The position numbers and the translations under genes were made by a program. A stretch of 64,000 bases of DNA from Enterobacteria phage P922, in the sequence record OR999189.1. One strand, 5' to 3'. This document shows positions 33,811 through 34,495 of this stretch, one piece after another. Below the pieces are notes generated by a model. It worked only from the letters and a program-made list of their open reading frames with translations, had not been told where the DNA came from and did not search any database. Positions within the stretch are counted from its first letter, which is position 1, and every line of letters begins with the position of its first letter.

Positions 33811-34040
33811 TGTCTGAACAAACTATTGAACAAAAACTGTCTGCTGAAATCATAACTCTGAAGTCTCGTATCCTTGATACTCAGGACCAAGCGGCTCGTC
33901 TGATGGAAGAATCCAGAATTATGCAAGGAACTTTGGCTGAAATTGCTCATGCAGTAGGTATCACTGGCGACACTATCAAAGTTGAAGAAATCGTCGAAGC
34001 TGTCAAGAATCTTACTGCTGAATCTGCTGATGAAGAATAA
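33810..34040 (+). CDS. 57A: tail fiber assembly chaperone gp57A
   Basis: 76-aa coiled-coil protein directly downstream of gene 1, as in T4. Confidence 0.7.
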
Positions 34041-34495
34041 TGGAATTTAAAGACTTTTCAACGGGTCTTTATGTAGCAGCTAAGTTTTCAGAATTAACAC
34101 TTGATGCGCTGGAAGAACTTCAGCGCTCTTTACGTGTTCCTAATCCAGTTCCTAGAGAAAAAATTCATTCGACCATATGTTATTCAAGAGTAAATGTTCC
34201 GTATGTTCCATCAAGCGGAAGTTTTGAAGTAGCTTCTTCTGGGCATTTAGAAGTATGGAAAACACAAGATGGATCGACTCTTGTACTTGTACTAGATTCT
34301 GAATATCTGCGCTGTCGACACATGTATGCGCGGGCACTAGGTGCTACACATGATTTTGATGATTACACACCGCATATAACATTGTCTTATAATGTTGGGC
34401 CCTTATCATTTAGCGGTGATGTACAAATTCCGGTCGTATTAGATCGTGAATACAAAGAGCCTCTTAAACTCGATTGGGCAGATGATTTAAAATAA
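34040..34495 (+). CDS. 57B: gp57B, anti-CBASS phosphodiesterase Acb1 homolog
   Basis: 151 aa immediately after 57A; T4 gene 57B was later characterised as Acb1 (from memory). Confidence 0.7.

Follow-up and report, generated by a model that had tools for sequence, protein, structure and literature searches.

What is encoded between the tail-fiber chaperone gene 57A and the internal protein gene ipI of this phage, and is the gene in working order? In the window (the whole stretch of DNA that was analyzed, 64,000 nucleotides), an earlier sequence-only reading had placed a 151-aa open reading frame (ORF) downstream of 57A, equated it by position and size with T4 gene 57B, and taken its product to be Acb1, a nuclease directed against cyclic oligonucleotide signals of the CBASS defense. 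It named a BLASTP comparison with T4 Acb1 and the conservation of catalytic histidines as the points to check. The ORF lies exactly where it had been placed, and its upstream neighbor is the chaperone gene:

33810..34040, + strand: 57A, tail-fiber chaperone gene (Pfam GP57, 163.7 bits; PHROG 1002 "tail fiber chaperone")
34040..34495, + strand: acb1, homologue of T4 gene 57B; ATG start, 151 aa plus TAA stop

A naive estimate gives about 2 stop-free stretches of 151 codons by chance in the six frames of 64 kb at 35.8% G+C. Because a length of 151 codons is by itself weak evidence at this G+C content, it is homology that decides whether the ORF is real. In BLASTP, 151 of 151 residues agree with T4 gp57B (NP_049750; translation taken from NC_000866), so that the comparison proposed beforehand returned full identity over the entire length. 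Over the 456 nt of the gene (stop codon counted), there are six differences from T4, all of them synonymous (6/6) and none non-synonymous. In a Pfam search with a reporting limit of E up to 0.1, the product matched a single family, PF23474 (Acb1; E = 2.6e−60, 202.7 bits against a cut-off of 27 bits, profile positions 1 to 144 of 144). The ORF at 34040..34495 is therefore confirmed as real.

The same gene is widespread in related phages. Megablast assigns the region to Tequatrovirus and matches 919 phage records. The best match and closest relative is Escherichia phage EC.W14-2 (99.8%), whose annotation includes the same 456-nt gene. Relatives of the window's Acb1 were found by tblastn in 1,485 phage records, and in 498 of these the protein is at least 99% identical. 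Given that T4 57B is Acb1 (PMC9117128), the equation of gp57B with Acb1 held, supported by the 202.7-bit match to PF23474. We estimate a probability of roughly 97% that a Tequatrovirus acb1 (T4 gene 57B) is encoded at this ORF and that its product would be a small 2H-type phosphoesterase that cleaves CBASS signals; no observation in the analysis spoke against this reading.

The genomic position agrees with this assignment. PHROG and Pfam matches give the gene order 2 (DNA end protector), 3 (tail completion), 1 (dNMP kinase), 57A, 57B, and ipI, and the ORFs that flank acb1 match Pfam families DNMK, GP57, and IPI_T4, as at the T4 locus. Downstream of ipI are an Ip7-like internal protein gene, homologues of trna.4, trna.3, and trna.2, and a cluster of 10 tRNA genes. 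The gene order is that of T4 read on the opposite strand, and a blastn map shows the entire window to be collinear with T4 from approximately 109,127 to 46,437, with 79 to 98% identity per block and scattered indels. Thus, the correspondence to T4 gene 57B by position and size is borne out by the neighbors as well as by the identity of the 151 residues. One of two primers published for the acb1 region (PMC13577387) matches exactly at 35341 on the − strand, while no exact site for the second occurs in the window. The acb1 gene of the window was known before, and the genome that carries it is an ordinary T4-like one.

The residues on which Acb1 activity depends have been described in structural and biochemical work by Hobbs et al. 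2022, who reported a catalytic HxT/HxT tetrad, base-stacking aromatic residues, and an adenine-specific contact through E141 (PMC9117128). In the FBB1 Acb1 protein, residues 145 to 152 form a lid that closes over the bound cyclic dinucleotide, and the H44A/H113A variant of T4 Acb1 is catalytically dead (PMC9117128). Residue mapping places the corresponding elements in the window as follows (the position in the window's protein is the T4 number minus one):

34166..34174, + strand: first catalytic HxT motif, H43-S44-T45 (T4 H44/T46); H-T-T in the FBB1 chain
34373..34381, + strand: second catalytic HxT motif, H112-I113-T114 (T4 H113/T115); aligns to H-I-T of FBB1
34466..34492, + strand: putative C-terminal lid segment, approximately residues 143 to 151 and including W146; boundaries approximate and drawn from the alignment

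All nine residues named in PMC9117128 carry the same amino acids in the window's protein (9/9). The tetrad is complete (H43, T45, H112, and T114, equivalent to T4 H44, T46, H113, and T115), and both histidines that were to be checked are in place. The stacking aromatic residues are all there (Y11, W73, F106, and W146, equivalent to T4 Y12, W74, F107, and W147), as is the adenine-contacting glutamate (E140, equivalent to T4 E141). A sequence search of the PDB retrieved the Acb1 chain of 7T26/7T27 (E = 4.1e−62, query residues 8 to 148) and, as a second match, 9Q2G, "Anti-CBASS protein Acb1" (E = 0.004). When aligned globally, the protein and the 7T26 chain agree at 96 of 142 positions, with one single-residue gap. 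A single-sequence AlphaFold2 model of the 151-aa protein had a mean pLDDT of 37.9 and a pTM of 0.30, and the model was set aside. From the 68% identity over 141 residues to 7T26/7T27, we infer a 2H phosphoesterase fold.

Because the protein sequence is the same as that of T4, the published T4 experiments would be expected to apply to it as well, as regards its chemistry, the range of its substrates, and its part in infection. T4 57B (NP_049750.1) was recognized as Acb1 by activity-guided fractionation for cleavage of 3′3′-cGAMP (PMC9117128). T4 without acb1 loses the cleavage activity, grows normally where CBASS is absent, and is impaired by a factor of more than 300 when the host has active CBASS. 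Likewise, in a transposon screen, 57B was dispensable on K-12 and depleted on a CBASS host. Later work showed that T4 Acb1 also degrades 2′3′-c-di-AMP in vitro. By analogy, the Acb1 protein of this phage would bind 3′-5′-linked cyclic di- and trinucleotides, the alarm signals of the host's CBASS cyclase, during infection; the expected ligands are 3′3′-cGAMP, cUA, cAAA, and others with at least one adenosine. Aromatic side chains would stack on the bases of the ligand, and the two His-x-Thr motifs would then cut 3′ of adenosine via a 2′,3′-cyclic phosphate intermediate, in a metal-independent reaction. We propose that the linear product would be unable to activate the CBASS effector, that death by abortive infection would thus be averted, and that the phage would complete its cycle.

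Database labels point in another direction. PHROG 755 is named "RNA ligase," as are the RefSeq entries for T4 and its relatives, and the two HxT motifs are typical of the 2H phosphoesterase superfamily, the home of LigT. The product could, therefore, be a LigT-like 2′-5′ RNA ligase or RNA 2′,3′-cyclic phosphodiesterase whose substrates are RNA ends, as in tRNA repair, and whose activity on cyclic oligonucleotides is incidental; a 10-gene tRNA cluster at a distance of 1.8 kb from acb1 would fit such a role. However, the Pfam search at E up to 0.1 yielded the Acb1 family alone and no LigT or 2′-5′ RNA ligase family. The identical T4 protein was purified by its cleavage of cGAMP, and the phenotype of its deletion is specific to CBASS, with growth otherwise normal. 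The Acb1 literature that we examined reports neither ligase activity nor phosphodiesterase activity on RNA ends. We consider an RNA-end enzyme very unlikely and dropped this identity, given the absent LigT-type Pfam match and the CBASS-specific published phenotype. An NCBIfam scan of the product, with matches up to E = 1 allowed, was negative. The name "RNA ligase" originates with PHROG 755 and was carried over into RefSeq; it is misleading, and reflects a distant 2H phosphoesterase kinship with LigT.

In public records, Acb1 homologues mostly appear as "RNA ligase" or "hypothetical protein" and occasionally as "cyclic phosphodiesterase." The first two of these labels are outdated for the Acb1 family. 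Since Acb1 makes and resolves 2′,3′-cyclic phosphates and adjoins the phage tRNA cluster, we also entertained a second job beyond CBASS, the processing of 2′,3′-cyclic-phosphate RNA ends in tRNA repair. We regard this idea as a long shot.

Even with acb1 as the identity of the gene, its start codon deserves attention. The T4 57B record is 152 aa long and begins with Met-Met, and the first of these two ATGs reads ATA in the window. The stop codon of 57A and the ATG of acb1 share one base (TAATG), and the 57A stop is TAA in the window versus TGA in T4. The 57A protein itself has 76 aa versus 80 aa in T4, due to a 12-nt in-frame deletion near its acidic C-terminus. We infer that translation begins at the second of the two methionines annotated in T4. 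Compared with the T4 record, the N-terminus lacks one residue, and function should not suffer from this difference. The TAATG overlap suggests that 57A and acb1 would be carried on one transcript and that their translation may be coupled. If the ATA is taken at face value, it would imply a start at the second methionine for the Acb1 proteins of all T-even phages, and it would also imply that Acb1 is produced only through translational coupling to 57A.

The replacement of T4's upstream ATG by ATA could also be read as damage. On that account, the acb1 of this phage would be a relic that is inactive or not expressed, as in phage Bas43, whose acb1 carries a nonsense mutation, with the lost T4-annotated start as a possible cause. 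There is precedent in the natural loss-of-function alleles of acb1 in T4-like phages, which are selected by Panoptes defense. Yet the frame is open from the second ATG to the stop codon of T4, with 0 amino acid changes in 151 residues; EC.W14-2 is annotated with the same gene, and approximately 498 phage records encode a protein that is at least 99% identical. The overlap with 57A, moreover, would preserve a coupled start. Decay of the gene is extremely unlikely on these grounds, and we dropped a pseudogene assignment in view of the intact frame, the T4-identical protein, and the purely synonymous differences. As far as can be judged from its reading frame, the acb1 allele of the window is intact.

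Candidate expression signals were found on both sides of the gene. A late-promoter-like motif, TATAAATA, is located at 33447 within gene 1, and MotA-box-like motifs are located at 33034 and 33550; all three are motif matches only. In T4, Acb1 activity is seen from approximately 15 min of infection, and the transcripts are middle and late. The putative late-promoter-like and MotA-box-like motifs are consistent with this published timing. The scan for transcription signals found no terminator-like site after acb1, and a consensus scan returned one promoter-like site:

34509..34537, + strand: sigma-70-type promoter-like site, TTTACA-17 nt-TACTAT with TG (motif match only)

This site lies between acb1 and ipI, and its sequence is kept in T4. 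It would delimit the acb1 unit on its 3′ side.

Is the gene also the beginning of a counter-defense-rich region, with ip genes following, as the sequence-only reading supposed? Two internal protein genes are found directly downstream:

34568..34855, + strand: ipI, internal protein I (94/95 identical to T4 IPI; Pfam IPI_T4 "nuclease inhibitor," 180.1 bits)
34934-35242, + strand: Ip7-like internal protein ORF, 102 aa (PHROG 2667 "internal head protein"; Ip7 in relatives)

The T4 ipI product is an inhibitor of the GmrS/GmrD restriction enzyme, and the adjacency of acb1 and ipI has been pointed out as an anti-defense island (PMC9117128). The supposition therefore stands in part: ip genes do follow, and ipI (94/95 to T4 IPI, family IPI_T4) is a counter-defense gene. 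For the Ip7-like gene and the next three small ORFs, no anti-defense role has been demonstrated. The Ip7-like gene is located between ipI and trna.4, at a site where T4 has no gene. Its 102-aa product matched no Pfam family, and has only an N-terminal MKT(F/Y)xEF leader in common with IPI.

The stretch around these genes is repetitive. A promoter-plus-leader cassette of approximately 59 to 93 nt occurs in three copies (at 34490, 34856, and 35236, within 34490-35317) with 75 to 87% identity, and consists of the TTTACA-17 nt-TACTAT promoter-like site followed by AGGAAAATAAAATGAAA. The copies lie directly 5′ of ipI, the Ip7-like ORF, and the trna.4 homologue. The threefold cassette has the look of a scaffold for recombination in a locus with swappable gene cassettes. 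An N-terminus of the MKTYxEF type is also encoded by four more ORFs on the + strand (37908-38471, 43002-43283, 43768-44022, and 44084-44659; 187, 93, 84, and 191 aa, respectively), of which one starts with MYQEF and the last is ipIII-like. The layout from e to vs.8 is unlike that of T4, with ipII missing and a denV homologue amid the ip genes. The latter (43342-43755; Pfam Pyr_excise) has only 79% nucleotide identity to T4.

Several further differences from T4 were observed across the window. The tRNA cluster at 36290-37116 (+ strand) specifies Gln, Leu, Gly, Pro, Ser, Thr, a tRNA with a CAT anticodon, Tyr, Asn, and Arg. The CAT-anticodon tRNA is Met according to ARAGORN, whereas its T4 counterpart is annotated as Ile. 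The T4 cluster has 8 tRNA genes and the segB homing endonuclease gene; the window is without segB and has Tyr and Asn in addition. Counterparts of T4 segD, segC (with 5.3), and mobD are also absent (approximately 1817-1878, 28244, and 52393-53356, respectively), and two unrelated ORFs (173 and 153 aa) occupy the mobD site. Between the homologues of genes 19 and 18, where T4 has nothing, a 655-bp insertion carries a GTG-started 205-aa ORF (7881-8498, − strand). This ORF has no Pfam match at E up to 0.01; visual inspection shows Cys pairs and a "DH...N...N" stretch that recall HNH homing endonucleases. Another insertion relative to T4, of approximately 490 bp (54461-54955, + strand), separates the nrdC.11 and nrdC.10 homologues and holds ORFs of 72 and 87 aa.

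A second anti-CBASS gene lies 12 kb downstream of acb1:

46290..46556, + strand: acb2, homologue of T4 vs.4 (87/88 identical to T4 Vs.4; Pfam Acb2_Tad1_hairpin, 71 bits)

T4 vs.4 encodes Acb2, a cyclic-nucleotide sponge. The lone substitution relative to T4 is C50Y, and Y8 and T68, whose mutation is reported to weaken binding, are kept. Judged by sequence, both anti-CBASS genes of the phage are intact, and a phage with intact acb1 and acb2 should, therefore, resist many CBASS systems. According to papers from 2025-2026, Panoptes guard systems fire once Acb proteins deplete decoy cyclic nucleotides. Later work also found that expressed T4 Acb1 activates these systems, and that T4-like phages with loss-of-function alleles of acb1, natural or selected, escape Panoptes types I and II. 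On the basis of these papers, sensitivity to Panoptes would be expected of this phage, whose acb1 and acb2 are intact. The locus has little value as a discovery, as the gene for a protein of identical sequence was described in 2022 together with its structure, mechanism, and role in infection, and near-identical proteins are encoded by about 500 sequenced phages. Its practical use is in annotation and in the choice of phages.

Compared with known systems, the gene is closest to that of T4, with which it shares the 151-residue sequence, the stop codon, 57A upstream, ipI downstream, and the promoter-like sequence that follows. It differs in the start, which the T4 record places one codon upstream (Met-Met), in the six synonymous changes, and in the T4 57A gene, which is longer and ends in TGA. 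Acb1 of Erwinia phage FBB1, with structures of the apo form (7T26) and of a complex with a 3′3′-cGAMP analogue (7T27), has 68% identity over residues 8 to 148, and its HxT/HxT tetrad, adenine-contacting glutamate, and C-terminal tryptophan are identical. FBB1 Acb1 differs by F at the position of W73 and Y at that of F106, both still aromatic, and by one additional residue after position 79. With the LigT/2H phosphoesterase superfamily, Acb1 shares the two His-x-Thr/Ser motifs, metal independence, and 2′,3′-cyclic phosphate chemistry (PMC9117128), but it acts on cyclic oligonucleotide immune signals rather than on RNA ends. Acb2 (T4 vs.4), encoded in the same phage, is likewise aimed at the cyclic-nucleotide signaling of CBASS; in contrast to Acb1, it is a sponge that sequesters these molecules without cleaving them, and it belongs to an unrelated fold and family (Pfam Acb2_Tad1_hairpin).
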